A stretch of DNA of 64,000 nt from Candidatus Kapaibacterium sp. (GTDB taxonomy: Bacteria > Patescibacteriota > Patescibacteriia > UBA9934), in assembly GCA_044350705.1 (NCBI GenBank), contig JBILHA010000001.1:177809-241808 (forward strand). Reading direction: 5' to 3'. Below, one piece after another: positions 43,701-61,990 of this stretch. A program made the translations under genes and the position numbers. Each line of letters opens with the position of its first letter. The first letter of the stretch is position 1. Under the pieces are notes generated by a model, which was not told the origin of the DNA, searched no databases, and saw nothing but the letters and a program-made list of their open reading frames with translations.

Positions 43701-46700
43701 TGCGACGATTAGTGACCCTGGGGGAATTTCGAATACGGTTACTCTCACAAACGTAACTGGACAAACGAATATTTTTACGGGTACTACAAGCGTTGCGATT
43801 AATGGGATTACAGGGCAGTGGAGTGATGGCACGAACCTTACGACGAATCCTGACGATTCTGAAACAGTTATCGATGCCGCTTCGCCGATTATTCGTACGG
43901 ATGGTGCGAACGCTCCTCGTTATGAAGATAGTAATAGCGATGGAACTATTGATCGTATCCGTTTAATTTTTTCTGAAAATACCACCATTACGTATACTGA
44001 TGCGGATTGGACCATTACGCCAAACGCATTAACGAGCGCTGATGTTTCGGCAGTTTCTTCGGGAAGCGGTACGACGACGGTTTATTTAACCGCTACAGCT
44101 CAATCGCTTTTGACGGGTGTTGGTACTGGCACGGTTCCTACGCTTTCATATGCGCAAAGTTCTGGCTCGGTTGCTGATGCAACAGGCAACCAACTTGCTA
44201 CGGTATCCGGTGTCAATCTTGTCGACTTTGCGAATCCTCGTTTGCGAACGGATTCTGGTAATCAAATGGCGTATCAAGATGCTGATGCGAATGGCAGCAT
44301 AGATCGTGTTCGTTTGATATTTACAGAGCCGGTTACGATTACCTATGTTGATGCAAACTGGGTTTCTGTGGCGAACTCACTTACGGGTTTTGATGTCGGT
44401 GCGCTTTCTTCGGGAAATGGAACATCAACGGTCTATCTTACCGCTACGACATCTTCTGCAACAACAGGTGTTGGCGCGGGAACGCAGCCTACCCTTCGCT
44501 TTACCGCGGGAAGTGGGGGAAGTATTGTTGATAGTGCTTCTAACGCACTTGCTTCTATTGCAGCCACTTCTCTTATTGATGAAGCGTTGCCGATTTTGCT
44601 TACTTCTCGATACCGCGATATTAACTACAACGCTACGGTAGATCGGTTTGATCTTACTTTTTCTGAAACCATGACCGTTGCTACGTGTGAAACGGGAGAT
44701 TATACCCTTTCGGGAAGTGACGCTTCGGGCGTTTCGGTGGCGTCGTGTTCTGCTACGGGTGCCGTGGTTGAGCTTACGCCCTCAGGTATTCCTGCAAATG
44801 ATACTTCGTTAACATTGGCCCTTTCGTATAATGCATCTGCGGGTACGGCGAATAGTTTGCGCGACGGTGCTGCAAATGGCGTTGCATCTTTTTCCTCGGT
44901 TTCGCTTGCTGATGCAACCTCACCCGTGCCTCTTGGTGGGGTTTCTCGCGATGTAAATAGTGATGGCACCGTAGATAGAGTTGTCGTTTCTTTTTCGGAG
45001 AATGTTACGGCAGCACATTGCGATGCAGCTGATTACACATTCTCAGGCACGCATGCGAGTGGTTTAGCGATTAGTGCATGTAGCCCTTCTGGACAAGATA
45101 TTTCGTATACACTCACTGGAGCTCCAGTTGCAAATACTGCGTTAAGTTTTTCGTGGACCTATACTCAGGCGGCGGGAACGGCAAATAGTTTAGCTGATGA
45201 TATTGGAAATGTGATTCCTAATGTCACTCTTGCAGTTACCGATGCCGCTGCGCCGGTTATCATTTCCGGTTCTTATACTGATGGCAATGGAGATGGAACA
45301 GTAGATGCGGTTTCTCTTGGTTTTTCTGAAGCGGTAACTGTCACGTATGACGATGGTGACTGGATAGCCAATGCTCGTGATTTAACGGGCTTTGATGTTA
45401 CAGGACTTACTTCTGGATCGGGAACTTCCTCACTTGTTTTTTCAGCAACGTCATCCTCGGTTACGGGTGTTGGCGCTTTGGGTGACGAGCCTACGCTTCG
45501 TTATACCGATGGCGCAGGTTCGCTTACGAGCGCGACGGGGGAGACCCCGTTGTCTATTAGTGCATTTACCCTTGCCGATAATGCAGATCCGTTGATTGTT
45601 TCTGGTGCGTATCAAGATGACAATGGGAACGGAACGGTTGATCTCGTCGTGCTTTCATTCACCGAGCCATTGGATTATGCCGCTTGTGAGGTTGGAGATT
45701 TTTCTTTTGCGGGTGCTGATGGATCGGGATTGTCGTTTTCTTCGTGCTCTGCAGGGTCCGGGGTTGATGGGGAATTTGTGCTTAATGGCGCTCCTTCTCT
45801 TGAAACAACGCTTGATATTGATCTTTCCTATAATGCGCTTGCCGGGCTTGCGAGCAGCTTAGTTGATAGCGAAGGAAATGCGCTCCCTTCATTTAGTGCC
45901 CTGAGTATTGACGATGAAGCGACACCCGTTCTTCTTTCTTCGTCTTATCAAGATGCTAATGCTGACGGTCGGGTTGATCGTGTCGCCTTGCAATTTTCTG
46001 AACCGGTTACGCTTACGTATGCAGATGGCGATTGGACAGCTATTGCGAACGGCTTGGTAAGTTTTGATGTCACAGGTATTCATTCGGGAAATGGTAGCGC
46101 TACCCTTCTTCTTTCTGCTACGGCGATGGCGGATCGTACGGGTGTTTCCTCTATTTCTTCTCAACCGCAACTTTCATTTACTGCGACCACAGGAAGTTTG
46201 GTTGATGCGGTTGGACAGGCGATTACTTCCTTAAGTACGTTTTCCGTTGCCGATGCGGCGGCCCCAGTTATTATTAGTGGTTCGTATGTAGATAGTGATA
46301 GCGATGCGGAGGTTGATCGTGTGCAATTGTTGTTTACGGAAGAGACGACGATTAATTTTGCTCTTGCGGATTGGACGGTTTCTTCAGGGGATCTCACGGG
46401 ACTTGCGATTTCTGCGATTGCTTCAGGGAATGGCAATGCGCTTATTTCTTTTGATGCATCTGCTGCTGCGGAGTTAACGGGAGTAGGTGCTGGTATTGAA
46501 CCGACATTAACATATCTTCCTGTTACGGGTTCAGTTGCTGATCGTTACGCTAATGCGCTGGTTTCTTCCGGACCGCATTCGCTTGTTGATGCCGCTGATC
46601 CGGTTTTGTTGAGTACAAATCCATCGCATAGTGAGTTGCATGTTGATCGAGATGCTGATGTTGTACTTTCTTTTTCTGAAGCTATGGATATCAATACATT

Positions 46701-49700
46701 TGCGTATGATATTTCCAATGCCGGTGTTTCTGAAGGTATTACGTGGGATGCCGATGAACGTATCGCAACGATTGATTTTGTATCAACACTTCCTGAAGAA
46801 ACGGTTATTACTGTTGAGGTGACCTTGGCCACGGACTATACGGGAAACGGATTCTCTCTTCTTGCGGGTATCGATAATCCTTTCTCATTTACTACAGCGG
46901 GTGCCATTATTAACCCCGTCCTCACCTCCGGATCTACACGCGACACTGATAATGACGGAAAAATAGATGCAATTGTTCTCTCCATCGATCAAGATATTAA
47001 TGGACTTACGGTTGCTGCTGCTGACTTTACGGTGACGGGCTACACCATTTCTTCTGCTTCTCGTACGGCTTCTGGTCAAATTACCCTTGTTCTCACCGAA
47101 GGAGGCTCTCTTGATACCGATGCTCGACCAGTAGTACAGGTCGTTGGTTCTGTAGATGGAGTATCTTCTGGTTTTCTTACCTCTGGAAGTATTACTCCGG
47201 CTGACGGTGCCGCACCTCTTGTGGTTTCTGGAGCGTATAAAGATAGTAATGCCGACGGTACGGTAGACCGTGTTGAAGTGTTGTTCTCCGAACCTCTTTC
47301 TTACAGCGCTTGTGAATACAGCGACTTCTCCTTTGGCGGCGCTGATGGGGCAGGGTTTTCTGTAAACGGTTGTGCAGCAGGGAGCGGTGATTACGGAGTA
47401 TTTGCTCTTGCAGGAGCTCCTAGTGGAGATACCTCGCTTACGCTTACCTTCTCGTACACCGCATCTCTTGGAACCACGAACAGTCTTGATGACGCTGCAG
47501 ATAACGCACTTCCTACGTTCTCTGCACTTGCACTTGCTGATGAAGCTCTTCCTGCACGACTTTCTAGTGCATACCAAGATGCTAATGCTGACGGTACGGT
47601 TGACCGTGTAGAACTTGTCTTCTCTGAAGCGGTCACGCTTACCTATGCAGATGCTGATTGGACGGCAACGGCTCATGGACTCACCGGATTTGATGTTACT
47701 GGCATTGCTTCTGGTAACGGTACGGATACCTTGTACCTTACGGCAACGGCAAGTGCTCATGTTACGGGTATTGCTGAGGAGGCAAGTCAACCAACGCTTG
47801 CTTTTACGGCAACGACGGGAAGCTTGGTTGACGGTGAAGGTTCCGCACTCTCTTCACTCACTACATTTGTTCTTCTCGATGATGCTGCTCCTGTTTTGCG
47901 AAGCGATATTGAAAGCGTATATCGTGATACTTCAGGAAATGGTGTTGTTGATCGTGTTGTCTTGCGTTTTACTGAAGATGTTAATGCGACGTACGATGCC
48001 GTAGATTGGGCTGTTACGGAAAATGACTTAGCAGGTCTTACAATTACGAGTGCGTCTGCCGGCTGGGCCTCTACAGTAAGTCTTACGGCTACCGCTGATG
48101 GTGTTCAGACGGGTGTTGGTCTTGGCGCAGAGCCGGGAATTGCTTTTTCTCCCGCGCTTGGTCAAATTGTCGATCGCTCAGGTAATGTGGTCAGTGCTTT
48201 TTCTCGCACGCTCGTTGATGATGCTTCGCCGCTTCTTGTAAGCTCTTCACCCCTTCATGGTGCAACGGGTGTTGCTCTTGATACGAACATTGTTCTTTCA
48301 TTTAGTGAAACAATGGATATCAATAACTTCTCTTTTTCTCTTTCTGAAGTTGTTGCGGGTGAAAGCTTGGGATGGAATGCGGCAGAAGATGAAATTACCA
48401 TTGAATATGCTGATAATTTTGAGTATGAAACTGAATATACGGTCTCACTTCTTGCCGCTCCTGATCTTGCGGGTAATGCGCTTGGCGGTGCATTAATCGG
48501 TTCTGCAAATCCTTTTAGCTTCACGACACTCTCCATTGTTGTGCATCCTGTCCTCACCTCTGGATCTACTCGAGATACCGATAACGATGGAAAGATAGAC
48601 GCCATTGTTCTCTCCATCGATCAAGACATTAATGGATTAACGGTTGCTTCTTCAGATTTTTCGGTGACGGGCTATACCATTTCTTCTGCTTCTCGTACGG
48701 CTTCTGGTGAAATCACTCTCGTTCTCACCGAAGGAGGTTCTCTTGATACCGATGCTCGACCGGCAGTACAGGTTGTTGGTTCTGTAGATGGAGCATCTTC
48801 TGGTTTTCTTACCTCTGGAAGTATTACTCCAGCTGACGGTGCCGCACCTCTTGTGGTATCTGGAGCGTATAAAGATAGCAATGCCGACGGTACCGTAGAT
48901 CGTGTTGAAGTATTGTTCTCCGAACCTCTTTCTTACGGCGCTTGTGAATACGGTGACTTCTCCTTTGGTGGTGCTGATGGGGCAGGGGTTTCTGTAGCGT
49001 CTTGTGGTTCGGGGGATGATGCCTATGGAATCTTTATTCTTTCTGGAACTCCAAGTAACGACACTTCTCTTGAGCTTACGTTTACGTATGCGGCATCTGC
49101 GGGAACTGCAAATAGCCTTGATGACGCTGCAGACAACGCACTTCCTTCCTTCTCTGCACTTGCACTTGCCGACGAAGCTCTTCCTGCACGGCTTTCTAGT
49201 GCATACCAAGATGCTAATGCTGACGGTACGGTAGACCGTGTAGAGCTTGTCTTTTCTGAAGCGGTTACGCTTACCTATGCCGATGCTGATTGGACGGTAA
49301 CGGCTCATGGTCTCGCTGGATTTGACGTTACAGGCATTGCTTCTGGAAACGGCACCGATACTTTGTACCTTTCGGCAATGGCGAGTGCGAATACGACCGG
49401 AATTGGTGAAGAGGATAGTCAGCCAACGCTTGCTTTTACGGCTACGACGGGAAGTTTGGTTGCGCTAGTTGGCGGCTCCGCTTTGCCTGCACTTTCCTCA
49501 TTTTATCTCTCCGATGAGGCGGCTCCTCGCATGATTTCTGGATCGTATTTTGATGAAAATGCTGATGCGCGTGTTGACGCAATGGATATTCTTTTTACTG
49601 AACCTGTCGATGTTCCATTTTGTGAATCCGAAGATTATGCATTTACTGGTGATGATGTGGGATCTCTCGTCGTAATTACATGCCCTGGGGAATCCGCTTC

Positions 49701-51351
49701 TCTTGGGCGATTTACGCTTTCTGGATCTCCAGCTTTTACCACGTATCTCTCTTTCGGCATTACGTATTCACAGATCTCGGGAATTAGTAACAGTATTGTT
49801 GATCTTTTAGGCAATGTCATGATTGATCAGGCGGTTGCATCGTTTGATGATGAAGCGCTTCCTATCATTCGCACGGATAACGGGCATGCTCCGCGCTATG
49901 AAGATGCGAATGGTGACGGTTCAGTAGATCGCGTTCGTCTTTCCATGACGGAAGATGTACTCGTGACGTATGTTGATGCTGAATGGACTGCTTCAGCAAA
50001 TGCATTTGGTACCCTTGATGCTGTTGGTCTTTCGGGTGGTAGTGGTACGTCGACGATTTTCATTTCTCTTGAAGCTCCGAGTGAGCTTACTGGCGTTGGT
50101 TCTTCGGCTCAACCACGTATTGCGTATGCGCCAACGTCTTCGGGTATTACTGACCTTGCGGGAAATGTGGGTCGATCGCTTGCAAGTAGGGCGATGGTTG
50201 ATGCCGCCGCGCCACTTATCAAGGATCTTTTTCCTGATTTTGGTGAGAGTGCCGTTGCAACTGATAGTCTGCCGGTTATTCGCTTTACCGAACCGATGTC
50301 GACGTCGCTTGCTGATACCGTTTTCACGCTTACTCCCTCGGTGGCTGGACTTTCCGGTGTATGGAGTGAGAGTAATGCGGTTTATTCTATGACTGCAACT
50401 TCTGCGCTTGATGCTTCAACGGAATATTTCTTAGCAATTGAGAGTAATGATGTTGTGGGTAATCTCTTTGGAAATGGCATCGTTTCTTCGTTGACGGGTT
50501 CGTTCCCTTGGACATTCACCACTGCGCAAGCTCGTCGATCGGGTTCTCAAGATCTTTTGCCACTTCCTCCGCAAACTCTTTCCGTTACGGTGCATCAGCC
50601 TCTTCCTGCTCCGTTGCCGCTTGGTTATCTTCGTGCAGATCGGCCCATCATTGTAAGTTGGCGAACGACAAGTGTTTTTTCAACGCTTGCACGAGTTTCC
50701 TATCGGGTGAATGAAGGTCCTTGGGAAGTTGCTGTTGAAAATACTACGATGCCTAGTGCTATGGTTCGTCTCCCGTATGATGCGCAAGGTAACGTTGACT
50801 TCATGGTGTCGATTTATGACCTTGATCGAGTAGTTATTGAAGGATTTAGTTTGGGATATGTTGTTGGTGAAGAGGTCGAAGAAATGCCTTCTGATTATCA
50901 TATTGTTTCGTATATCAAGTCAGAAGAGTTTTCCACGATTTACGGACTTGATTCTCTCGGAGTTCGTAGGCCGTTCTTAAATGAACAAGTTTTCTTTACA
51001 TGGGCAGAGCGTTTTGATGAAGTGCACGTTCTTTCTTCCGTGGATCTTGCAGAGTATCCGATTGGATCGCCTATGCTTCCGAAGGCAGAAAGTATTTTGG
51101 TGAAGATTCAGTCTGATCCTCGGGTGTATTTCGTTGTTACTCCTGAATATCCTCAAGATCCTCCTTTGCTTCGTCATGTTCCGAACGAATTAGTTGCGCG
51201 TGAATTGTTCGGTGATGCTTGGGATCGTTCGGTGATCGATATTGAACCTACTTTCTTCACACAATTCACGCTTGGACTTCCGCTAGACGTTTCCTTTGGT
51301 GCGCGTTCGCTCTTTACTCGTGAGGATCTTTCAGCTCGTGCGCTTCGTTGA
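40723..51351 (+). CDS. Giant secreted repeat protein (3542 aa): signal peptide, two Gly-rich beta-helix-like modules, >25 tandem ~100-aa Ca-binding-motif repeats, unique C-terminal domain
   Basis: Single uninterrupted ORF. N-terminal signal/TM (FILTFILLSPFWSEAAA). Duplicated Gly-rich modules ending GGGGGGRVSVLYGTDSS / GGGGGGGRVAIYYGTDST. Alternating repeats with DxNxDGxVDRVxLxFSE and Cys-pair ACE...C motifs. Antisense ORFs in the track are shadows. Confidence 0.8.
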   Translation: MVLFPSSFSRFSRFLKVLGGSIFILTFILLSPFWSEAAACPVTDGGVGDGDGSANGTLTINASTSWTPPATRGDFWDCTGKTVHVTGGATLTFSTVTTSGRFGYLKADNIIVDAGSAISSDGLGCSVSSPGWGFGPNVTTGICTLETTGAGRGGSGSGYSPASGSYGGLGGYGGSPSWLAGSVYGDPISPMLFGSSSGDTNYEDSGPGGGVVWLHATDTLTLDGTISARGLAGASAAAGAGSGGSILLLAQVIDGTTGALNAEGADGKSSGSGRFSGGGGGGRVSVLYGTDSSSWLGSLSPSTVVSGGLSSGGTSTAGEDGTVYKSASYDPAIAFATISDSDADYQVDTITITFDRDLDGATVAMSDFSLDGGYTITSASETSAGVVTLTVAERGYVDVERSITISLVGSVTDTMFGLSSSSDVYYAVSSTCPFFDGSPDDADLARNGSYTIAEAVQLTPSPYRLNCEGLDLVVNSTVTFAGSVSTGDYSHLRADDITLGFGGVFSATERGCQGLAQSAHEPGLDNICGASALSSGNGSSGAGGGGISQARGGGGGYGGNGGQGGSAAALAGFLGGTSYGSSTTPLLFGSTGGGTTGSRGGHAGGIVAITASGTFTWNGSILSQGGNGTGTSGSAAGGGGSGGSVYIQAATLAGSTGSVSAAGGNGYSGSSVNGGGGGGGRVAIYYGTDSTSFVSGLSAAGVAAGGTGPSAAAEGTAGSLYTSATYTAAAPEAIEGFTRDADTDGYLDAIVLLFTEDLDAASLATTDFSVTGYTITGVALTSGNVVTLSLQEGGTPDTSAIPATSIVGSISGATSGTITSGSFVMNDEAYPVAMSASYLDTNVNGAVDRVDIVFSETITFSYNSGDWTFPDAGSFNLVDTTFAVTTNTLRLTVTADAEETSSSTTPTVLYTNTANRLQDASGNFTATFPSALSISDAAAPAINAMTTGDANSDGYIDTLIFVWTENVDTNDGAPPVLADFGTITMPNGGTASSATISDPGGISNTVTLTNVTGQTNIFTGTTSVAINGITGQWSDGTNLTTNPDDSETVIDAASPIIRTDGANAPRYEDSNSDGTIDRIRLIFSENTTITYTDADWTITPNALTSADVSAVSSGSGTTTVYLTATAQSLLTGVGTGTVPTLSYAQSSGSVADATGNQLATVSGVNLVDFANPRLRTDSGNQMAYQDADANGSIDRVRLIFTEPVTITYVDANWVSVANSLTGFDVGALSSGNGTSTVYLTATTSSATTGVGAGTQPTLRFTAGSGGSIVDSASNALASIAATSLIDEALPILLTSRYRDINYNATVDRFDLTFSETMTVATCETGDYTLSGSDASGVSVASCSATGAVVELTPSGIPANDTSLTLALSYNASAGTANSLRDGAANGVASFSSVSLADATSPVPLGGVSRDVNSDGTVDRVVVSFSENVTAAHCDAADYTFSGTHASGLAISACSPSGQDISYTLTGAPVANTALSFSWTYTQAAGTANSLADDIGNVIPNVTLAVTDAAAPVIISGSYTDGNGDGTVDAVSLGFSEAVTVTYDDGDWIANARDLTGFDVTGLTSGSGTSSLVFSATSSSVTGVGALGDEPTLRYTDGAGSLTSATGETPLSISAFTLADNADPLIVSGAYQDDNGNGTVDLVVLSFTEPLDYAACEVGDFSFAGADGSGLSFSSCSAGSGVDGEFVLNGAPSLETTLDIDLSYNALAGLASSLVDSEGNALPSFSALSIDDEATPVLLSSSYQDANADGRVDRVALQFSEPVTLTYADGDWTAIANGLVSFDVTGIHSGNGSATLLLSATAMADRTGVSSISSQPQLSFTATTGSLVDAVGQAITSLSTFSVADAAAPVIISGSYVDSDSDAEVDRVQLLFTEETTINFALADWTVSSGDLTGLAISAIASGNGNALISFDASAAAELTGVGAGIEPTLTYLPVTGSVADRYANALVSSGPHSLVDAADPVLLSTNPSHSELHVDRDADVVLSFSEAMDINTFAYDISNAGVSEGITWDADERIATIDFVSTLPEETVITVEVTLATDYTGNGFSLLAGIDNPFSFTTAGAIINPVLTSGSTRDTDNDGKIDAIVLSIDQDINGLTVAAADFTVTGYTISSASRTASGQITLVLTEGGSLDTDARPVVQVVGSVDGVSSGFLTSGSITPADGAAPLVVSGAYKDSNADGTVDRVEVLFSEPLSYSACEYSDFSFGGADGAGFSVNGCAAGSGDYGVFALAGAPSGDTSLTLTFSYTASLGTTNSLDDAADNALPTFSALALADEALPARLSSAYQDANADGTVDRVELVFSEAVTLTYADADWTATAHGLTGFDVTGIASGNGTDTLYLTATASAHVTGIAEEASQPTLAFTATTGSLVDGEGSALSSLTTFVLLDDAAPVLRSDIESVYRDTSGNGVVDRVVLRFTEDVNATYDAVDWAVTENDLAGLTITSASAGWASTVSLTATADGVQTGVGLGAEPGIAFSPALGQIVDRSGNVVSAFSRTLVDDASPLLVSSSPLHGATGVALDTNIVLSFSETMDINNFSFSLSEVVAGESLGWNAAEDEITIEYADNFEYETEYTVSLLAAPDLAGNALGGALIGSANPFSFTTLSIVVHPVLTSGSTRDTDNDGKIDAIVLSIDQDINGLTVASSDFSVTGYTISSASRTASGEITLVLTEGGSLDTDARPAVQVVGSVDGASSGFLTSGSITPADGAAPLVVSGAYKDSNADGTVDRVEVLFSEPLSYGACEYGDFSFGGADGAGVSVASCGSGDDAYGIFILSGTPSNDTSLELTFTYAASAGTANSLDDAADNALPSFSALALADEALPARLSSAYQDANADGTVDRVELVFSEAVTLTYADADWTVTAHGLAGFDVTGIASGNGTDTLYLSAMASANTTGIGEEDSQPTLAFTATTGSLVALVGGSALPALSSFYLSDEAAPRMISGSYFDENADARVDAMDILFTEPVDVPFCESEDYAFTGDDVGSLVVITCPGESASLGRFTLSGSPAFTTYLSFGITYSQISGISNSIVDLLGNVMIDQAVASFDDEALPIIRTDNGHAPRYEDANGDGSVDRVRLSMTEDVLVTYVDAEWTASANAFGTLDAVGLSGGSGTSTIFISLEAPSELTGVGSSAQPRIAYAPTSSGITDLAGNVGRSLASRAMVDAAAPLIKDLFPDFGESAVATDSLPVIRFTEPMSTSLADTVFTLTPSVAGLSGVWSESNAVYSMTATSALDASTEYFLAIESNDVVGNLFGNGIVSSLTGSFPWTFTTAQARRSGSQDLLPLPPQTLSVTVHQPLPAPLPLGYLRADRPIIVSWRTTSVFSTLARVSYRVNEGPWEVAVENTTMPSAMVRLPYDAQGNVDFMVSIYDLDRVVIEGFSLGYVVGEEVEEMPSDYHIVSYIKSEEFSTIYGLDSLGVRRPFLNEQVFFTWAERFDEVHVLSSVDLAEYPIGSPMLPKAESILVKIQSDPRVYFVVTPEYPQDPPLLRHVPNELVARELFGDAWDRSVIDIEPTFFTQFTLGLPLDVSFGARSLFTREDLSARALR

Positions 51352-54723: not shown

Positions 54724-56757
54724 ATGACTACGTACGATGCTCAACGCGTCCGAGAAAAGCGCAGAAATGCCTTTATTGCCTCGGGAATACTCGTTCTTTC
54801 TCTTATTGCTTGGCTTGGAAGTTATCCTCAGCCCTACAATGCTTTTGCCGGTTGGGTCGAAGGATCTACGGGACTCTCACTCCCGCGCGTTTCTGAACAG
54901 CCGCTTACGCTTGGTCTTGATCTCCAAGGGGGGGTGCATTTGACCTATGGTGCTGACATGACGAATGTTGCCGAGGCTGACCGAGCTGAGGCTTTGGAGG
55001 GAGTTCGTGATGTGATTGAGCGCAGGGTTAATGCTTTTGGTGTTGTGGAGCCTGTGGTGCAGTCTACCGCTTCCAATGGTTATCGAGTGATTGTTGATTT
55101 GCCAGGAGTGACAAACGCTACCGAGGCGGTTGCGCAAATCGGAGAAACGCCTGTGCTTGAATTTAAAGTTCCTCGAGAAGATTTTTCATTTGAACCTACC
55201 TCCGAAGATCAGGCTGTTGTTGATGCGGCTCAGCCTGCTGAGCGTACGGCTGCTTTAGCGGTGCTTGATCAGGCGCTTGCGCGTGATGCGGACTTTTCTT
55301 CGCTTGCAAACCAATATTCAATTGATGCGTCTACCAAAGAGCAGGGGGGATATGTTGGTTTTATTGCTGCTGATGATCCAGAGTTCGGTGGCCTTGCAGA
55401 ACGCATTGCTTCTGACCGCTTGCGCCCAGGAGTTATTGATGGGCTTTACGAAGGGACATCACGCATGCATGTCGTAAATTATCTTGGTTCACGCGATGAG
55501 ACCGAGGTACAGAGCGCCCACATTCTTATTTGTTATTTTGGCGCAAAGGGTTGTGCGAGCGAGATGTCACGCGATGAAGCTCGTGCTTTGGCAGACGAAG
55601 TTCAGGGTCAGGCGACGAGTAGGAATTTTGCTGATCTTGCAAAACAGTATTCTACTGATCCTGGGAGTGCCTCTGAAGGAGGGGATCTTGGGTGGGTGAA
55701 GGCAGGGCAGATGATTGAGGTATTCGAAGATTCACTTTTCGCTCTCCGTGATGGGCGTATTTCTGAAGTCGTAGAGACGGAGTTTGGTTTTCATATCATT
55801 TATCGCGTAGATAGTCGCACAACGAAAGCCTACGAGATTGCGCATATCGAAATGCCCTGGACCACGCTTTCTGATGTTGTTGCGGTTGATCCATGGGAGA
55901 ATACTGAGCTCTCCGGGAAGCATGTCCGCAATGCTGCGGTGGCGATAGACCCTGTTACGCAGCGCCCCTATGTTGCTATTGAATTTAACGAAGAAGGGGG
56001 CGCGTTATTTGAGCAGATCACAACTGACCATATCGGTGAAGTTATTGGTATTTTCCTTGATGGGGAGCCTATTACGACGCCCGTGGTTCAGCAGACTATT
56101 TATCGGGGTACCCCTGCAAGTATTACCGGTGATTTCACCACGAATGACGCGAAGCTTCTTGCTCAGCGTTTGACCGCGGGAGCTCTTCCGGTTCCTATTG
56201 CCCTTGAATCTCAGCAAACTATTGGACCTACTTTAGGGCTTGCATCGCTTGATATGAGCGTTAAGGCGGGATTGCTCGGTTTTGTGCTGATCGCCGTATT
56301 TATGGTGGCGTACTATCGTCTTCCCGGTCTCTTTGCCACCTTTGCTCTGGCTATTTATGCGGGTTTAAACCTTGTACTTTACAAAGTTTTCGGGGTGACG
56401 ATTACGTTGGCGGGTATTGCTGGTCTCGTGCTTTCCATGGGTATTGCGGTTGATGCGAATGTGCTCGTGTATGAGCGTCTCAAGGAGGAATTGCGTGCTG
56501 GCCGCGATCTTCCTTCGGCACTTGAGGAAGCGTATCGTCGTGCATGGCCTTCGATTCGAGATGGGAATTTCACTACCCTTATCGCGACTATTGTTTTGTA
56601 CTTCATGAGTACGGGGTTCATTCGCGGTTTTGCGCTTACGCTCACGATTGGTGTATTGCTTTCCATGTTTACTGCTCTTACGGTTACGCGCGGCATGCTT
56701 CGTTTAGTTGCTCGCTCTAAAGCTTTCCGGAAAAAGATCTTCTTCCTTGGACTCTAA
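54724..56757 (+). CDS. secD: Protein translocase subunit SecD with two parvulin-type PPIase domains inserted in the periplasmic P1 domain
   Basis: SecD N-terminus (LGLDLQGGVHLTY; ...VIVDLPGVTNATEAVAQIGETPVLEFKV), P1 base (IGPTLG) and six C-terminal TMs. Inserted: two PpiC-like units, with motifs SIDASTKEQGGYVGFI and SAHIL...STDPGSASEGGDLGWVKAGQMIEVFEDSLFALRDGRISEVVETEFGFHIIYRV. Confidence 0.85.
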   Translation: MTTYDAQRVREKRRNAFIASGILVLSLIAWLGSYPQPYNAFAGWVEGSTGLSLPRVSEQPLTLGLDLQGGVHLTYGADMTNVAEADRAEALEGVRDVIERRVNAFGVVEPVVQSTASNGYRVIVDLPGVTNATEAVAQIGETPVLEFKVPREDFSFEPTSEDQAVVDAAQPAERTAALAVLDQALARDADFSSLANQYSIDASTKEQGGYVGFIAADDPEFGGLAERIASDRLRPGVIDGLYEGTSRMHVVNYLGSRDETEVQSAHILICYFGAKGCASEMSRDEARALADEVQGQATSRNFADLAKQYSTDPGSASEGGDLGWVKAGQMIEVFEDSLFALRDGRISEVVETEFGFHIIYRVDSRTTKAYEIAHIEMPWTTLSDVVAVDPWENTELSGKHVRNAAVAIDPVTQRPYVAIEFNEEGGALFEQITTDHIGEVIGIFLDGEPITTPVVQQTIYRGTPASITGDFTTNDAKLLAQRLTAGALPVPIALESQQTIGPTLGLASLDMSVKAGLLGFVLIAVFMVAYYRLPGLFATFALAIYAGLNLVLYKVFGVTITLAGIAGLVLSMGIAVDANVLVYERLKEELRAGRDLPSALEEAYRRAWPSIRDGNFTTLIATIVLYFMSTGFIRGFALTLTIGVLLSMFTALTVTRGMLRLVARSKAFRKKIFFLGL

Positions 56758-56761
56758 TTGT

Positions 56762-57658
56762 ATGAAGTCTCTTAATATCATGCGTCTTAGTACGCTTTGG
56801 CTCAGTCTTTCTGGAGTTATCGTTGCCGCATCTCTTGCTGCATTCATGTTTTTTGGCCTGAACTACGGGGTAGATTTTACGGGAGGTGCTCTTCTTGAGC
56901 TTAACGTGCCCTCGCTTTCTTCCCCTGAGGAACTTCGGGGACATCTTGAATCCTCAGGGTTTGCGGAAATCAAGGTGCAAGAGGGTGAGGGAGACCGGGT
57001 ATTTGTACGAGCAGGGCAGCTTTCTGAAGATGAGCATCAGCGTTTGCTCGCCGAGGTTCAGTCACGCTATGCAGATGCGTCTGAAGTGCAATATACGTTT
57101 GTAGGTCCTTCTGTGGGTTCTGAGCTTCGCCGTTCAGCCACGATCGCTATCGGTGTTCTCTTGGTACTTATTGCTTTGTATGTTGCCTGGGCGTTTCGTA
57201 ATGTGGGAGAAAAAGTTTCTGCATGGAAATTTGGTACGATTACGCTGCTTACTGCCGCGCATGACGTCATTGTTCCTCTTGGGGTTTTTGCAGTTCTGGG
57301 GCGCGTGTGGGGATATCAAATTGATACGGCATTTGTAGCGGCTATTCTCACTATTCTTGGCTACTCCATTAATGATACGATTGTAGTTTTCGATCGTACG
57401 CGTGAGCATTTAGCGGCAAAGCGTACCGGGGAGTCTTTCCGAGAACTGGTAAACAAAAGCGTTAATGAAACGATGGGTCGCTCCATTAACACGACGCTTG
57501 CGGTACTCCTTCCTCTCTTGGCGATTTTCTTTGTTGGGGGCGAATCTACGCGTCCTTTTGTTCTTGCGCTGATCGTTGGAGTTGCGGCGGGAGCATATTC
57601 TTCTCTTTTTCTTGCAAGTCCTCTCTTGGTTCTTTGGCAGGAAAAGACGACGAAATAA
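56762..57658 (+). CDS. secF: Protein translocase subunit SecF
   Basis: ATG 56762 (MKSLNIMRLSTLWLSLSGVIVAAS). SecF pattern DFTGGALLEL..., six TMs (AILTILGYSINDTIVVFDRTRE). Confidence 0.85.
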   Translation: MKSLNIMRLSTLWLSLSGVIVAASLAAFMFFGLNYGVDFTGGALLELNVPSLSSPEELRGHLESSGFAEIKVQEGEGDRVFVRAGQLSEDEHQRLLAEVQSRYADASEVQYTFVGPSVGSELRRSATIAIGVLLVLIALYVAWAFRNVGEKVSAWKFGTITLLTAAHDVIVPLGVFAVLGRVWGYQIDTAFVAAILTILGYSINDTIVVFDRTREHLAAKRTGESFRELVNKSVNETMGRSINTTLAVLLPLLAIFFVGGESTRPFVLALIVGVAAGAYSSLFLASPLLVLWQEKTTK

Positions 57659-57708
57659 AGAAATACTGAATACCGGAAAACCTCATAACACGACCGAAGG
57701 GTCGTGTT

Positions 57709-59307
57709 ATGCTATATAGCGATATGCTTGGGATCGTCCTCAATCTTCCGCCTACTCTTGAACGCTTTTTTGCAGCCACTCCTCCGGATGTTTTGGCGGC
57801 ATATGCACTCCTTATTGTTGGCCCCGTCCCTATTTTAGGGGTCATCGTTTGGGGATTTTCTCATCTTTGGCTTGAATACAAGCAAGAGGTTTTTGAACAT
57901 AGCTTAAAGTGGATCAATCTCGAGGTACGTGTTCCACAAACGAGCATTCAAACTCCAAAAGGCATGGAGAATTTCTTTTCTAACCTTGCGGGAGCAAAGA
58001 GTGGACTTACGTGGAAAGAAACATGGCTTCTCGGAAAAACACAGGCGCGTTTTTCTTTTGAATTGGTGAGTAATGGCGGGGATATTTCTTTCGTGATTCG
58101 TGCGTTGGAAAAATTCCGAGATATTTTGGAGGCTGATTTATACGCGCAGTATCCTGAAGCCCAAATTACCGAGGTGCCTGATTATACCGGCATGGTTGCG
58201 AAGAAGTATCCTAATGATGACCAGGAGTTGTTTGGAGCAGAAATTGTATTGGCAAAAGAACGTTTTTTACCTATTCGTAATTACGATAGTTTTGAACATC
58301 AAGGTGAAAAGGAAAATCGATTTAAAGATCCGCTTTTGTCCCTTCTTGAGCTCATGGGAAAAATGCAGCCCGGTGAGCACTTGTGGGTGCAGCTTATTAT
58401 TCGTCCGCCTCAGAATGAAGATTGGGTGAAAGAGGGTTTGGCATATTTAGGAAAGGTGATGGGGAAGGAGGAAAAAGCTCCGAAAAAGAGCGGTGGCATT
58501 CTGGGTGCGATTGATGGTCTCTTTTGGTTTCCTTTTGGCGTTTTAGAGCAGGTTACTGGCATGAAGATTGGAGGAGGTGCGGAAAAGGCCGAAAAGAAGC
58601 CGGATGATTTTAAGATGTTCCGATTAACAAGTGCGGAGAAAATTCAGATTGACCAGGTTGCAGAAAAGATTTCAAAAGTAGGGTGGGAGGCAAAGATTCG
58701 TTGGATCGGTGTTGGACCTAAGAATAGTTTTAGAAAGGGGGTTTTTGCTTCCGGCATGAAGGGTGCTTTTCAGCCTTTTAATAGTCCTATTCTTAATCAA
58801 CTTTCTACTCATGGTCCTGCTGTTCCAAAAGATGATTATTTTTGGCAGAAGTGGTCGTATGGCAAAAAACAGGGCATTCTTGCTCAGCGGTATGCGGCGC
58901 GATCATTTTCTGCGGGTGCGACTCCTACCATTTTAAATGCTGAAGAGCTTGCAACGCTTTTCCATTTTCCTTCTGCGGATGCGCGTACGCCTGTGCTTAC
59001 GGCAATGGGCGCACGTCGTTCAGAAGCGCCTAACGTTCTTCCCGCGGCTCCTGTTGGTCGGCTTGGAGGTACGCCTGTGAGCGAGCCTACTTCTGACGAT
59101 TGGCGAAGAGTGTATCTTGAACGCAGAACGCAGCAGGGTACTACGCATGCCGTTCCTGCGGGTATTCCCGAAAAGCCTTCGGCGCCTCATGAATTTCCAG
59201 ATCATGCGCCTTTTCATGATGCGATCCTTCCTCATCCGCAGGCGCCTCAAGAACATGGTTTGCATGATGAAAAACAGGATGCTCCTCCTGATAATTTGCC
59301 GGTGTAG
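57709..59307 (+). CDS. Hypothetical membrane protein, operonic partner of the downstream P-loop ATPase
   Basis: 532 aa. N-terminal TM (VLAAYALLIVGPVPILGVIVWGFSHLW), internal hydrophobic patch GGILGAIDGLFWFPFGVL, Pro/His-rich C-terminus. Stop at 59307, next gene ATG at 59310. Confidence 0.45.
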   Translation: MLYSDMLGIVLNLPPTLERFFAATPPDVLAAYALLIVGPVPILGVIVWGFSHLWLEYKQEVFEHSLKWINLEVRVPQTSIQTPKGMENFFSNLAGAKSGLTWKETWLLGKTQARFSFELVSNGGDISFVIRALEKFRDILEADLYAQYPEAQITEVPDYTGMVAKKYPNDDQELFGAEIVLAKERFLPIRNYDSFEHQGEKENRFKDPLLSLLELMGKMQPGEHLWVQLIIRPPQNEDWVKEGLAYLGKVMGKEEKAPKKSGGILGAIDGLFWFPFGVLEQVTGMKIGGGAEKAEKKPDDFKMFRLTSAEKIQIDQVAEKISKVGWEAKIRWIGVGPKNSFRKGVFASGMKGAFQPFNSPILNQLSTHGPAVPKDDYFWQKWSYGKKQGILAQRYAARSFSAGATPTILNAEELATLFHFPSADARTPVLTAMGARRSEAPNVLPAAPVGRLGGTPVSEPTSDDWRRVYLERRTQQGTTHAVPAGIPEKPSAPHEFPDHAPFHDAILPHPQAPQEHGLHDEKQDAPPDNLPV

Positions 59308-59309
59308 CT

Positions 59310-61193
59310 ATGTCGCATGATCATCACGACGAACCCGTCCTTCATTCTTCTGAACCTTCAGGACCTTTTCAGTACGATCATGAAAAGCATGTTACGTACT
59401 TTGCGCAGACGAATTTTCGTAATCAAATGCGGAAATTCGGTATTAAAACCGACGATCGTCGCCGTCACATGTATGTGATTGGAAAGACGGGTATGGGTAA
59501 GACTACCCTTCTTGAAAACATGTTCCTTTCGGATGTGTATGCGGGGCATGGGTGTTGTTATATCGATCCTCACGGAGATACCGCCGAGAAGCTCATTGAT
59601 TTTATTCCTGCTTGGCGCATTAATGACGTGGTGTACTTTAATCCTGCGGATTTTGATAATCCTATTGGATTCAACGTTTTGGAAGTCAATCATGATCTTC
59701 CTCATGATCTTCTCGTTGAAGAGAAGGAGCGTATTTCCTCTTCACTGCTCTCGGTTTTCAAGAAGATTTGGGAGAATGTGTGGAGTGCGCGCATGGAGTA
59801 CATCATGAACAATACGGTGAAGGCGCTTTTGGATACCCCTGGTACGACGCTTTTGGGTATTAACCGCATGCTTTCTGATAAGGATTATCGATTGGAAATT
59901 GTTCGTAACATCAAGGATCCTATCGTGAAGCAATTTTGGGTGCAGGAATTTGCTGCGTATGATGCAAAGTTTGCTTCGGAAGCAGTGGCTCCTATTCAAA
60001 ATAAGGTAGGTCAATTTATTTCTTCCGCAGTTATTCGCAATATCGTTGCACAGGCGAAGAGCTCGTTGAATCTTCGAGATGTCATGGACAATGAGAAGAT
60101 TTTCATCGTGAACCTTTCCAAAGGAAGAAATGGTGATGAAGCGATGCGTTTACTTGGAGGCATGCTCATTACGAAGATCCAGATTGCAGCGATGGAACGC
60201 GTTGATACTCCGGAAAAGCTTCGTAAAGATTTTTATCTTTATGTAGACGAATTTCAGAATTTTGCCGTAGATTCTTTTGCGAGCATTCTTTCCGAGGCGC
60301 GAAAATATCGGTTGAATCTTATTTTGGCGCACCAGTACATTGCTCAGCTTTCTGAACCGGTGCGTGATGCGGTATTTGGTAACATCGGCACTATCGTTTC
60401 TTTCCGCGTAGGTTCTCCGGATGCACTCTTTTTGGAGCCTGAGTTCATGCCGCGCTTTATGGCGCAGGATATTATCGAGCTTCCTCGTGCTGGCGTGTAT
60501 GTCAAGCTCATGATTGATGGTGTTACCAGTCAGCCCTTTTCTGCCTCGACGCTTCCTCCGATTGGTCAGTCGACGGGCAGTACGCAGAAGGTTATTGAAC
60601 AGTCTCGTGAACGATATTCGGGGAATCGGAAGAATATCGAAGAGCGTGTTATGGCGTGGAGTGGTTTTGGCGATGATGTAAATATTGATGAAAAATTGAA
60701 AGAGGTTTCTGATGCGAAAAAAGAAGCGAAGAAAGCAAAGTATAGTTTTACGTATGACTGTACACGATGCGGAAAGCAATTTTTGCTTCCGGTAGAGCTT
60801 GACCGTTCCCGTCCTATTTACTGTGAAGAATGTAAAGCTATCGTGGATTCGGAACGACAGCGTGCGAAAGCAAAGAGTGAGGCAAAGAAGCAGCCGAGTA
60901 CTGCGCCGTCTGGAGCGCCGGTGCGCGCGAAAGATGGGGAGTTGGTGGTTCGTCCAGTTGCTGAGCCGGTTTCTCTTTCTGCGCTCCAGCATGCTGACGC
61001 AGGAAGTGCGGATGCGCAAAAGAAAAAGAGAAAGCGCAAGAGAAAAAAGAAGTCGACTTCAGAGCATTCGGCGACTTCCGGATCTGTATCTTCAGTTCCT
61101 TCGGACGGTCGAGAATTCTCGCTTGATCCGTCTTCGTCCGACTCTTCTTCTCTTCCTCATCCTACGCTTCCTCCTGAGTCATCCCCCGTATGA
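59310..61193 (+). CDS. TraD/VirD4/HerA-superfamily P-loop ATPase with C-terminal zinc ribbon and polybasic tail
   Basis: Walker A HMYVIGKTGMGKTTL followed by YIDPHGD (T4CP/VirB4-like). Walker B FYLYVDEFQNF. LILAHQY. C-terminal CxxC...CxxC (YDCTRCGKQF...IYCEECK) then KKKRKRKRKKK. No N-terminal TM. Confidence 0.5.
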   Translation: MSHDHHDEPVLHSSEPSGPFQYDHEKHVTYFAQTNFRNQMRKFGIKTDDRRRHMYVIGKTGMGKTTLLENMFLSDVYAGHGCCYIDPHGDTAEKLIDFIPAWRINDVVYFNPADFDNPIGFNVLEVNHDLPHDLLVEEKERISSSLLSVFKKIWENVWSARMEYIMNNTVKALLDTPGTTLLGINRMLSDKDYRLEIVRNIKDPIVKQFWVQEFAAYDAKFASEAVAPIQNKVGQFISSAVIRNIVAQAKSSLNLRDVMDNEKIFIVNLSKGRNGDEAMRLLGGMLITKIQIAAMERVDTPEKLRKDFYLYVDEFQNFAVDSFASILSEARKYRLNLILAHQYIAQLSEPVRDAVFGNIGTIVSFRVGSPDALFLEPEFMPRFMAQDIIELPRAGVYVKLMIDGVTSQPFSASTLPPIGQSTGSTQKVIEQSRERYSGNRKNIEERVMAWSGFGDDVNIDEKLKEVSDAKKEAKKAKYSFTYDCTRCGKQFLLPVELDRSRPIYCEECKAIVDSERQRAKAKSEAKKQPSTAPSGAPVRAKDGELVVRPVAEPVSLSALQHADAGSADAQKKKRKRKRKKKSTSEHSATSGSVSSVPSDGREFSLDPSSSDSSSLPHPTLPPESSPV

Positions 61194-61990
61194 CCATTTT
61201 TGAGGCAGTGATCTTGGGCGCCGTACAGGGCTTTACGGAATTTCTTCCTATTTCAAGTTCAGGACACCTTATTTTGTTTCCTGCGATTTTGGGTTGGGAG
61301 GCGCAAAGTGTGGTTTTTGATGTCGCGGTACACGTTGCTACTCTCGGAGCGATTCTTGTTGCATTGTGGCCGAGGATTTCTGCTTGGATCAAAGAATTGC
61401 GCAGGGGTAATAAAACCGCGTGGCGTCTTGCGATGTATCTTGTTTTGGCTACCATTCCTGCGGGACTGTTAGGAATTTTTGGTGGGGATTGGCTTGAAGG
61501 GCAGCGTACGCTTCCCATGGTGGGTATCATGCTTATTTTTTGGGGAATCATTTTGTATATCGCTGATGTGATTGCCGTAAAGCTTTCTCGAACGGTCGTG
61601 AAAGATGGGCAGATTACGCTCCCCTTTGCGCTTGCGATAGGCGTTGCTCAGGCGCTCGCTCTTTTTCCTGGCACTTCTCGTTCGGGTGCGAGTATCAGTA
61701 CGGCAATGCTTCTTGGGTTTGATAGAAAAACGGCTGCAAACTTTTCTTTTCTTCTTGCTATTCCTGCAATTTCTGGTGCGGGTCTGGTGACGGCACTTGA
61801 TATTTCCGAAACGGGTTTAGATGTTCCGATTATTTCATTGGTGGCAGGATGTCTTGTCGCTTTTATTACCGGTATTTTTGCGATTCGATTCCTTTTTGCA
61901 GTTATCGAAAAGGGAGGATTTCGCTGGTTTGCGCTTTATCGTGTAGTGTTGGGAGTACTTGTCCTCAGTCTTTTCTATGCTTCTTCGTGA
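61190..61990 (+). CDS. uppP: Undecaprenyl-diphosphate phosphatase
   Basis: MTIFEAVILGAVQGFTEFLPISSSGHLIL, GTSRSGASI, eight TMs. Overlaps the previous stop by 4 nt. Confidence 0.9.
   Translation: MTIFEAVILGAVQGFTEFLPISSSGHLILFPAILGWEAQSVVFDVAVHVATLGAILVALWPRISAWIKELRRGNKTAWRLAMYLVLATIPAGLLGIFGGDWLEGQRTLPMVGIMLIFWGIILYIADVIAVKLSRTVVKDGQITLPFALAIGVAQALALFPGTSRSGASISTAMLLGFDRKTAANFSFLLAIPAISGAGLVTALDISETGLDVPIISLVAGCLVAFITGIFAIRFLFAVIEKGGFRWFALYRVVLGVLVLSLFYASS

Follow-up and report, generated by a model that had tools for sequence, protein, structure and literature searches.

A DUF8128 protein and a VirD4-type ATPase as the likely halves of a split type IV coupling protein in Patescibacteria

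The Patescibacteria account for a large share of bacterial diversity and depend on their hosts for nucleotides. A 64,000-nt stretch of one such genome (Candidatus Kapaibacterium sp., GenBank assembly GCA_044350705.1, contig JBILHA010000001.1, positions 177,809 to 241,808 of the forward strand; hereafter the window) carries two adjacent genes that raise the question of how a motor resembling type IV coupling proteins (T4CPs), itself devoid of a membrane segment, comes to be encoded on a chromosome beside a protein that possesses one, and what the two proteins do there. In what follows, A denotes the upstream gene, which encodes a protein of the DUF8128 family (PF26449), B the downstream gene, which encodes a P-loop ATPase, and L-numbers designate comparison loci.

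It is highly likely that A and B are two polypeptides of a single T4CP, with A contributing the membrane anchor and the N-terminal domain, and B the motor. The two can be treated as one unit because B lies directly downstream of A in 60 of 77 informative relatives, because the phage family PHROG 5156 is collinear with the pair, and because phages and plasmids encode fused homologs of both halves. An earlier note on this DNA, made from the sequence alone, had suggested that the upstream gene supplies the anchor missing from the ATPase. The same three observations strongly support this suggestion, and the comparisons add that A is more than an anchor: it is the N-terminal domain of this class of T4CPs.

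The motor and its anchored partner

B is a VirD4/TrwB-type motor with intact Walker A, Walker B and sensor motifs and an all-alpha domain (Table 1). Walker A, YIDPHGD, Walker B and the sensor motif are invariant in the alignment of the B family, and the Walker B and sensor regions align to the equivalent motifs of TrwB. Among Pfam models, TrwB_AAD_bind (37.9 bits; gathering cut-off 20.5) and T4SS-DNA_transf (28.7 bits; gathering cut-off 20.1) score above their cut-offs and TraG-D_C (22.0 bits) at its own, while DUF87/HerA (19.9 bits; cut-off 23.2), FtsK_SpoIIIE (13.8 bits; cut-off 24) and the VirB4 models fall below threshold. The best NCBIfam match is SXT_TraD, followed by the VirD4-like CD1115 family, and the best sequence matches in the Protein Data Bank (PDB) are DotL and TrwB. 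Profile alignment (hhalign) of the B family with R388 TrwB yields 94% probability (E 1.3e-7) over 267 columns that extend from Walker A to the HQ motif, whereas with the VirB4 protein of the same plasmid, TrwK, the P-loop alone aligns (2.6% probability). The AlphaFold2 (AF2) model of B is poor (mean pLDDT 57.7) because the underlying alignment is shallow, all of its sequences being more than 60% identical; the nine best PDB fold matches of this model in Foldseek are all T4CPs (Cag-beta, DotL and TrwB). Helices are predicted at residues 132-246 with pLDDT 65-85, a region that the TrwB alignment also covers.

The earlier note had described B broadly as a TraD/VirD4/HerA-like ATPase, with motifs typical of coupling proteins and of VirB4/HerA-type translocases. 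Pfam, hhalign and fold comparisons uphold the VirD4/TrwB part of this description and not the VirB4 or HerA part, and, with coupling proteins as its best matches throughout, B does not belong to an unrelated P-loop family. The motifs quoted in that note (Walker A, YIDPHGD, DEFQNF, the CxxC pairs and the polybasic run) were all located in the sequence. An identification of the pair as VirB4 was rejected on the P-loop-only alignment of B with TrwK and the lack of a CagE_TrbE_VirB-type match in A.

No transmembrane (TM) or hydrophobic segment occurs in B, which begins 57 residues before Walker A. C-terminal to the motor follow a conserved helical linker, a zinc ribbon and a disordered region with a basic run, and most relatives carry a terminal LPGERIxF motif. 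The zinc ribbon recognized in the earlier note is conserved: 41 of the 46 full-length orthologs from Patescibacteria have it, while eight plasmid or phage homologs and two tandem paralogs of B lack it. The polybasic tail, also correctly noted in B, is not a general feature of the family, since a strong basic run (at least seven K/R per 10-residue window) is found in 16 of the 46 orthologs. The sequence of B suggests that it may bind nucleic acid.

Tandem paralogs of B lie directly downstream of it in two loci (L008:8259-9704 and L014:9254-10672). They are 37-40% identical to B, measure about 475 aa and carry neither zinc ribbon nor tail; their presence fits the roughly two T4CP homologs reported per Patescibacteria genome.

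The assignment of A to DUF8128 follows from precomputed PF26449 matches on all listed homologs of A (at least 120), including the 100%-identical P0121; a Pfam scan of A with a model set that did not contain PF26449 returned no match. No mention of DUF8128 was found in the searchable literature. A DUF8128 profile search recovers 2,491 clusters (50% identity) at E <= 1e-3, and at least 560 loci were confirmed by scanning GTDB species genomes. All named loci are Patescibacteria-like except for some metagenome-assembled genomes (MAGs) labelled Gammaproteobacteria, Pseudomonadota or Binatia, labels that are taken to be erroneous, and 2.9 million viral contigs are essentially free of the family. Searches of the PDB by sequence with two different profiles of A produced no match, and scanning 23 divergent members of DUF8128 against Pfam revealed no meaningful family.

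Hydropathy identifies a single TM segment in A. Lysine and arginine residues flanking this segment average 0.29 on the N-terminal side and 3.09 on the C-terminal side in 159 homologs, 97% of which obey the positive-inside rule, and the bulk of A is therefore predicted to be cytoplasmic. The earlier designation of A as a membrane protein hence holds for one hydrophobic stretch, the remainder consisting of a cytoplasmic domain and a disordered tail. In the AF2 model, the alpha/beta domain reaches pLDDT values of about 85-95, except for a low-confidence loop near residues 255-295, and contains two near-invariant motifs, AQYPEA and EELATLFHFP. The motif that ends the proline-rich tail is invariant or near-invariant in one family alignment and retained at 26-30% identity in another, and NLP[VILFM] occurs within the last 12 residues of 91 of 159 DUF8128 representatives.

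The modelled fold of the cytoplasmic domain may point towards VirB4. The 13 top PDB matches of the A model are all R388 TrwK/VirB4 chains (E 5e-5 to 8e-3), with Foldseek probabilities of 0.9-1.0 but TM-scores of only about 0.3 and without reported aligned residue ranges, and in a viral structure library the model matches gp155 of phage G, a VirB4-like ATPase (P-loop_TraG/AAA_10; E 1e-6). VirB4 proteins such as TrwK and gp155 also share with the pair the succession of an N-terminal alpha/beta domain and a P-loop motor, at about 820 aa in total; they differ in that their N-terminal domain shows no profile similarity to A and in that the motor of B is VirD4-like. Alignment of the DUF8128 profile with TrwK is not significant, nor is that with a 21-sequence profile of the TrwK N-terminal domain (<1%), and nothing significant was obtained against gp155, the VirB4-like ATPase of Embleya, the 1,102-aa protein of Natrinema or the 1,092-aa protein of Sulfolobus pHVE14. 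The sole sequence likeness between A and VirB4 is a local LEAxxYAQ(Y/L)P resemblance. That A carries a VirB4-type N-terminal domain is plausible from these models, the arguments for and against being evenly balanced.

Fused relatives and known systems

PHROG 5156, a phage protein family of unknown function (824 positions), aligns with A over positions 67-309 (E 4e-11) and with B over positions 407-805 (E 2e-57), and thus presents an A-like and a B-like region in the order of the two genes. Its members differ from the pair in being fused, encoded by phages and devoid of both the N-terminal membrane anchor and the zinc ribbon. In Bacillus phage G, the 825-aa gp156 resembles B in its C-terminal half (29.7% identity, tblastn E 4e-37) and the DUF8128 profile in its first 300 residues (hhalign 97.5%, E 7e-12), and its predicted structure matches the model of A (Foldseek E 1e-17). 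The corresponding match of SPO1 gp27.4 (906 aa) to the DUF8128 profile is weaker (hhalign 58%), and a tblastn search of phage records with the A domain gave no match.

The same two modules, a DUF8128-like domain followed by a B-like motor, make up T4CP-like ATPases of about 810-890 aa on plasmids of Firmicutes and Actinobacteria, in which the B part is matched by tblastn. These plasmid proteins are single polypeptides without a zinc ribbon, encoded in conjugation clusters with a relaxase-like gene and a VirB4-like ATPase, whereas the modules are here distributed over two genes. An 885-aa fused protein of Bacillus subtilis plasmid NZ_CP154917 aligns to the A profile with 97.4% probability, and the N-terminal domain of an 863-aa protein of Staphylococcus aureus pSA737 matches DUF8128 weakly. 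The 812-aa protein of Embleya plasmid NZ_CP108778 (Streptomycetaceae) is a single chain that unites a TM helix, the N-terminal domain and the motor. The match in its N-terminal domain, though collinear, is weak (hhalign 39%), and the protein shares with A the N-terminal TM helix and the basic residues that follow it, in this case RRRR. A split arrangement recurs in the haloarchaeal Natrinema pNATPE02, where a B-like gene begins inside the gene for a 395-aa A-like protein (hhalign 96.6%, E 5e-10). Homologs on mobile elements adjoin Replic_Relax relaxase-like genes, VirB4-like ATPases, a PrgI/VirB3-like gene, an NlpC/P60 hydrolase and genes annotated as 'conjugal transfer', which is the usual place of a coupling protein.

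Two of the relatives deserve separate mention. In SPO1 (L091, 87981-99102), the functionally unannotated fused ATPase gp27.4 is separated by four small open reading frames (ORFs) from gp27.9, an actin-like partition protein (ALP_N), and is accompanied by gp27.3, a Replic_Relax nickase; the region amounts to a DNA-processing module of plasmid type within a lytic phage. Among plasmid relatives, the one closest to the B motor (38% identity, E 7e-87) is a motor-only protein of 395 aa on plasmid NZ_CP081110 of the alphaproteobacterium Sulfitobacter mediterraneus (L092, 99994-101181), flanked by a recombinase and transposases and without an A-like gene, and probably reflects horizontal transfer out of the monoderm/Patescibacteria pool.

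Canonical T4CPs (TrwB of R388, VirD4, DotL and Cag-beta) share with B the Walker A and B motifs, DPxGD, the all-alpha insertion and the sensor motif. They bear, however, their own two-helix N-terminal TM domain and no DUF8128 domain, and are encoded with a type IV secretion system (T4SS) and a relaxase or effectors, none of which is found near B; B, in turn, lacks a TM segment and adds the zinc ribbon and basic tail. A closer likeness in layout is provided by pIP501 TraI/TraJ, in which the T4CP has no TM domain and a small membrane protein encoded directly upstream has been proposed as its anchor (PMC13037476), and by pGO1 TrsJ-TrsK, in which the gene of a proposed anchor likewise precedes a TM-less T4CP of the CD1115 family. 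The likeness ends at layout, since these anchors lack the large cytoplasmic domain of A: TrsJ measures 154 aa and shows no similarity to DUF8128 (hhalign 0.1%), B matches TrsK weakly, and alignments of DUF8128 with pGO1 TrsD, TrsE, TrsJ and TrsC gave nothing significant.

Conservation, chromosomal setting and start of gene A

The two genes form a pair that is conserved among Patescibacteria: of 81 loci, 60 have B directly after A and four others end too early to be informative. In the 17 remaining loci A has no adjacent B, and adjacency is therefore common but not obligatory. The unpaired loci include a Magasanikbacteria type with the order secDF-A and a second type with the order sigma-like/A/GT4/DUF4012/DUF11. 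In the latter (L036, L046, L054, L058, L062, L064 and L072), the genes after DUF8128 encode, in place of the ATPase, a GT4 glycosyltransferase, a DUF4012 protein and a DUF11 surface-repeat protein. Either these genomes carry B at another site, or there is a second context for DUF8128, one related to the envelope.

The wider gene order secA..secD-secF-(sigma-like)-A-B is conserved: in 51-52 of 81 loci DUF8128 is preceded by secD/secF, and in some the pair is found away from secDF. Synteny holds down to 31% identity in A. Across the 41 loci with all genes present, median identity to the window protein is 57% for B, 53% for SecA, 47% for SecD, 44% for SecF and 35% for A. No third conserved partner emerged downstream of B, where the genes vary (DUF1361, alpha/beta hydrolases, GT2 glycosyltransferases and others). 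A linkage to uppP was dropped, UppP following the pair in only 7 of 81 loci and being a sub-lineage-specific neighbour. A linkage to ComEC is likewise weak (three of about 88 loci): a split ComEC, consisting of a Competence-domain gene and a Lactamase_B gene, directly follows the B ortholog at L088:10619-12815, and ComEC lies just upstream of the sigma-like gene in L031 and L057.

That sigma-like gene is the best-conserved neighbour of A after B. It encodes a protein of 340-420 aa with an N-terminal sigma70 region 4 and a C-terminal HARE-HTH domain, and stands directly upstream of A in 40 of about 88 loci (for instance L088:5867-6988, L036:4830-5873 and L082:2410-3450), the window not being among them. 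The protein could be a DNA-binding accessory factor of the module or merely a conserved transcription factor.

The nearest homologs of both proteins come from Patescibacteria MAGs, the named ones mostly Candidatus Uhrbacteria. In the window, both ORFs and their 2-nt spacing (the TAG of A ends at 59307 and the ATG of B starts at 59310) agree with the earlier description, as does the position of the pair between secDF and uppP (Table 1). The names secD and secF rest on SecD and SecF Pfam domains observed in syntenic relatives; secA is also upstream, before both, and the stop of B shares an ATGA with the start of uppP (61190-61193). An rRNA-type methyltransferase is among the neighbours, and the remaining genes are housekeeping genes (aldehyde dehydrogenase, SPFH protein, HtrA, LytR, ATP synthase subunits, ClpB, TGT, DnaB, SHMT, FolD, MurB, a Mur ligase and TruB). 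The 64 kb contain no VirB4, relaxase, pilin or integrase gene, and the flanks of the pair no integrase, relaxase or tRNA. GC content ranges from 0.41 to 0.51, mostly 0.46-0.50, with a near-uniform GC skew. This uniform composition, together with the housekeeping neighbours, the SecA-like conservation of B and the absence of the family from viral contigs, identifies the pair as core genes: the module is vertically inherited and housekeeping-like, and not a mobile element.

Table 1. Features of the A-B module and its immediate neighbours (positions are those of the window)
Feature	Position	Strand	Remarks
secD	54724..56757	+	upstream context, outside the module proper
secF	56708..57658	+	upstream context, outside the module proper
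Perfect 12-bp stem: CAUAACACGACC, GAAG loop, GGUCGUGUUAUG	57684..57711	+	between secF and A
Gene A, DUF8128 (PF26449)	likely 57724..59307 (longest ORF 57709..59307)	+	527 aa (longest ORF 532 aa)
Single TM segment of A	57787..57873	+	residues 22-50 counted from M6; hydropathy; predicted N-out/C-in
Predicted cytoplasmic alpha/beta domain of A	57907..58983	+	~360 aa, residues about 66-425; AF2
Predicted disordered Pro-rich tail of A	58984..59304	+	~100 residues; AF2, pLDDT <50
C-terminal motif PPDNLPV-COOH of A	59284-59304	+	conserved as PPxNLP[VILF]-COOH
Gene B, VirD4/TrwB/TraD-type T4CP P-loop ATPase	59310..61193	+	627 aa
Walker A of B, GKTGMGKT	59481-59504	+	residues 58-65
YIDPHGD of B	59559-59579	+	residues 84-90
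All-alpha domain of B	59607..60209 (approximate)	+	between Walker A and Walker B; AF2 and TrwB alignment
Walker B of B, DFYLYVDEFQNF	60228-60263	+	residues 307-318; contains DEFQNF
Sensor/arginine motif of B, EARKYRLNLILAHQ	60294-60335	+	
Zinc ribbon of B, CxxC-x17-CxxC	60753-60833	+	residues 482-508 (Y482..C508)
Polybasic KKKRKRKRKKK of B	61020-61052	+	residues 571-581, in disordered tail
uppP (BacA)	61190..61990	+	downstream context, sub-lineage-specific

The true start of A is probably the ATG at 57724 (M6 of the longest ORF), since homologs start at MLGI, the 100%-identical database protein has 527 aa, and a 1-nt indel between the two ATGs puts the upstream ATG out of frame in two relatives of about 80% identity. 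This bears on the hairpin between secF and A, which the earlier note had given as an 8-bp stem (57688..57708) abutting the first start codon. The stem is in fact 12 bp long and encloses, and so sequesters, the upstream AUG at 57709, and the likely start codon does not adjoin it. The 81-nt hairpin context is stable (-24.1 kcal/mol, z = -3.35), none of 200 shuffles being as stable, but the hairpin is not kept in the two relatives of about 80% identity: L085 has a stem and a T-run after secF, and L084 no clear hairpin. A role as a conserved regulator was accordingly ruled out, and the hairpin is assigned to the secF 3' end or to a leader, as a peculiarity of this lineage that lies outside the module.

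Three further observations concern the surroundings. Directly upstream of secA, an ORF of 3,542 aa (40723..51351, + strand), with Pfam matches limited to three stretches of Big_5 Ig-like and to EstA Ig-like, probably encodes a very large adhesin or other surface protein of an epibiont. All 2-kb bins have a positive GC skew (0.01 to 0.24), the cumulative skew climbs steadily and long ORFs are mostly on the + strand; the entire window appears to lie on one replichore. Finally, precomputed Pfam lists show an inserted peptidyl-prolyl isomerase domain (Rotamase/PpiC) in syntenic SecD orthologs (L001, L084 and L085), an unusual fusion, and the SecD of the window (677 aa) belongs to the same size class.

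Function and rival explanations

The family to which B belongs is already annotated and counted under the name of 'T4CP homologues'. In 3,035 Patescibacteria genomes, Quinonero-Coronel et al. (2025; PMC12102498) found 5,713 VirD4-type homologs distributed over 2,918 genomes at about two copies per genome, of which 148 lie near virB4, together with VirB4 in 2,417 genomes, only 109 relaxases and T4SSs of the MPF-FATA type; an exaptation of the T4CP homologs, in the words of the authors, 'cannot be ruled out'. These homologs are very probably the same gene family as B, and the survey did not include the DUF8128 partner, the split architecture, the fused relatives on mobile elements or the zinc-ribbon tail. 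For Southlakia, Wang et al. (2023; PMC10633639) report a T4SS cluster in which no coupling protein can be recognised, and protein export was proposed there for the Patescibacteria T4SS. The supplement of the same study lists two T4CP-like proteins with a P-loop domain that begins at residue ~360-400, and this late start may point to a fused form in Saccharimonadia.

The overall reading proposed here, a split and domesticated T4CP that handles nucleic acid, has in our judgement an even chance of being correct. In such a system, A would tether a hexamer of B beneath the membrane, its cytoplasmic domain packing on the motor as the N-terminal domain of VirB4 does, and the disordered tail, ending in PPxNLPV-COOH, could act as a docking peptide that replaces the lost covalent link. 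ATP hydrolysis by B would push the substrate towards a membrane channel, and the zinc ribbon and basic tail may bind nucleic acid directly, substituting for the relaxase of the plasmid homologs. Possible roles, put forward in the earlier note, would be DNA uptake or transfer to a host cell. The partner of the pair may be the MPF-FATA-like T4SS found in most Patescibacteria, encoded elsewhere on the chromosome in a locus without a coupling protein, a proposal that falls slightly short of an even chance and that is made because all characterized relatives of B use T4SSs, because the T4SS loci lack a T4CP, and because B has affinity to CD1115/MPF-FATA.

Several observations weigh against this reading. 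T4CP homologs are more widespread than VirB4 (96% against 80% of genomes), and Southlakia has an essential T4SS but a t4cp that is reported as non-essential (PMC12102498). In none of 88 Patescibacteria loci does a VirB4-like gene, relaxase or pilin occur within about 6 kb of the pair, A stands without an adjacent B in the 17 loci described above, and B is far better conserved than is usual for plasmid T4CPs. The homologs in SPO1 and phage G presumably manage without a complete T4SS. The structural model of B is of low quality, and the sequence-profile nulls reduce the connection between A and VirB4 to one of fold comparison.

Much of this evidence would fit a T4SS-independent motor, in which an A6B6 assembly translocates or otherwise handles nucleic acid, alone or with another channel such as ComEC, and which could import scavenged DNA, export DNA or handle chromosomes and plasmids in the manner of FtsK. 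The pair is near-universal and housekeeping-like, with B as conserved as SecA; it never adjoins T4SS genes in the 88 loci; most Patescibacteria genomes are devoid of a relaxase (PMC12102498); the zinc ribbon is an addition of the chromosomal Patescibacteria form only; the phage homologs have a nickase and an actin-like partition protein as neighbours but no complete T4SS; and B shows a weak NCBIfam match to the archaeal DNA-translocating ATPase CedD. ComEC adjoins B in L088 and the cluster in L031 and L057, yet these are three of some 88 loci; the one TM helix of each A subunit offers a thin basis for a DNA pore, every characterized relative of B works with a T4SS, and a replacement of FtsK is disfavoured by the FtsK_SpoIIIE score of B, which stays below threshold. 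An independent motor is hence an unlikely explanation, if one to be taken seriously. A further reading, a relaxase-independent nucleic-acid pump kept as a housekeeping gene by an obligate epibiont, seems quite improbable. In that case the zinc ribbon and basic tail would capture DNA or RNA directly and independently of sequence, and nucleic acid would be moved across the membrane at the host interface, either imported for nucleotide scavenging or exported. As a corollary, were this reading true, the T4CP class would retain a VirB4-type N-terminal domain and constitute a living intermediate between VirB4 and VirD4.

The substrate might also be protein, with the pair recruiting effectors or acting with Sec/SecDF. 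The conserved gene order behind secA, secD and secF favours this possibility, as do the effector-recruiting T4CPs (DotL, Cag-beta and VirD4) among the best structural matches of B and the protein export proposed for the Patescibacteria T4SS (PMC10633639). Streamlined genomes can, however, keep gene order without a functional link, the pair also occurs away from secDF, and the zinc ribbon, the basic tail and the relaxase-linked homologs point to nucleic acid, so that a protein-export ATPase is very unlikely. A role in anti-phage defence, with B as a MADS/HerA-like ATPase and A as its membrane partner, is scarcely credible and was rejected. B does match mad8 of the MADS system in PADLOC (58.6 bits, E 1.7e-16) and HerA models weakly, a result that is explained by shared P-loop ancestry and that marks mad8 itself as a T4CP-like P-loop ATPase; A has no PADLOC match, no other MADS gene is adjacent, and a fixed core-genome position among secDF, uppP and an rRNA-type methyltransferase, vertical inheritance and SecA-like conservation are the opposite of a defence island. 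The likelihood that the pair is a functionless remnant of an integrated conjugative element or prophage is close to negligible. Its nearest relatives outside the Patescibacteria are on plasmids and in phages, but composition shows no anomaly, the flanks bear no integrase, relaxase or tRNA, the family is essentially absent from viral contigs, the catalytic motifs are invariant and synteny is kept to 31% identity in A, and this explanation was rejected on these grounds and on purifying selection.

With regard to the split coupling protein that we favour, what appears new, to judge from the searchable literature, is the obligate-looking partner A as the N-terminal domain of a broad class of T4CP-like ATPases of monoderms, archaea and phages, the existence of split and fused states, the Patescibacteria-specific zinc-ribbon tail and a possible VirB4-type fold. 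A published survey left open the role of near-universal orphan T4CP homologs, one of which now becomes half of a two-gene unit, and DUF8128 gains a concrete role as a T4CP N-terminal domain. The tail motif of A, the docking of A on B and the zinc-ribbon tail define a complex that can be tested, and the chromosomal gene is linked to tractable fused homologs on Bacillus plasmids and in phage SPO1. If the VirB4-like fold of A proves true, it would bear on the divergence of both signature ATPases of the T4SS.

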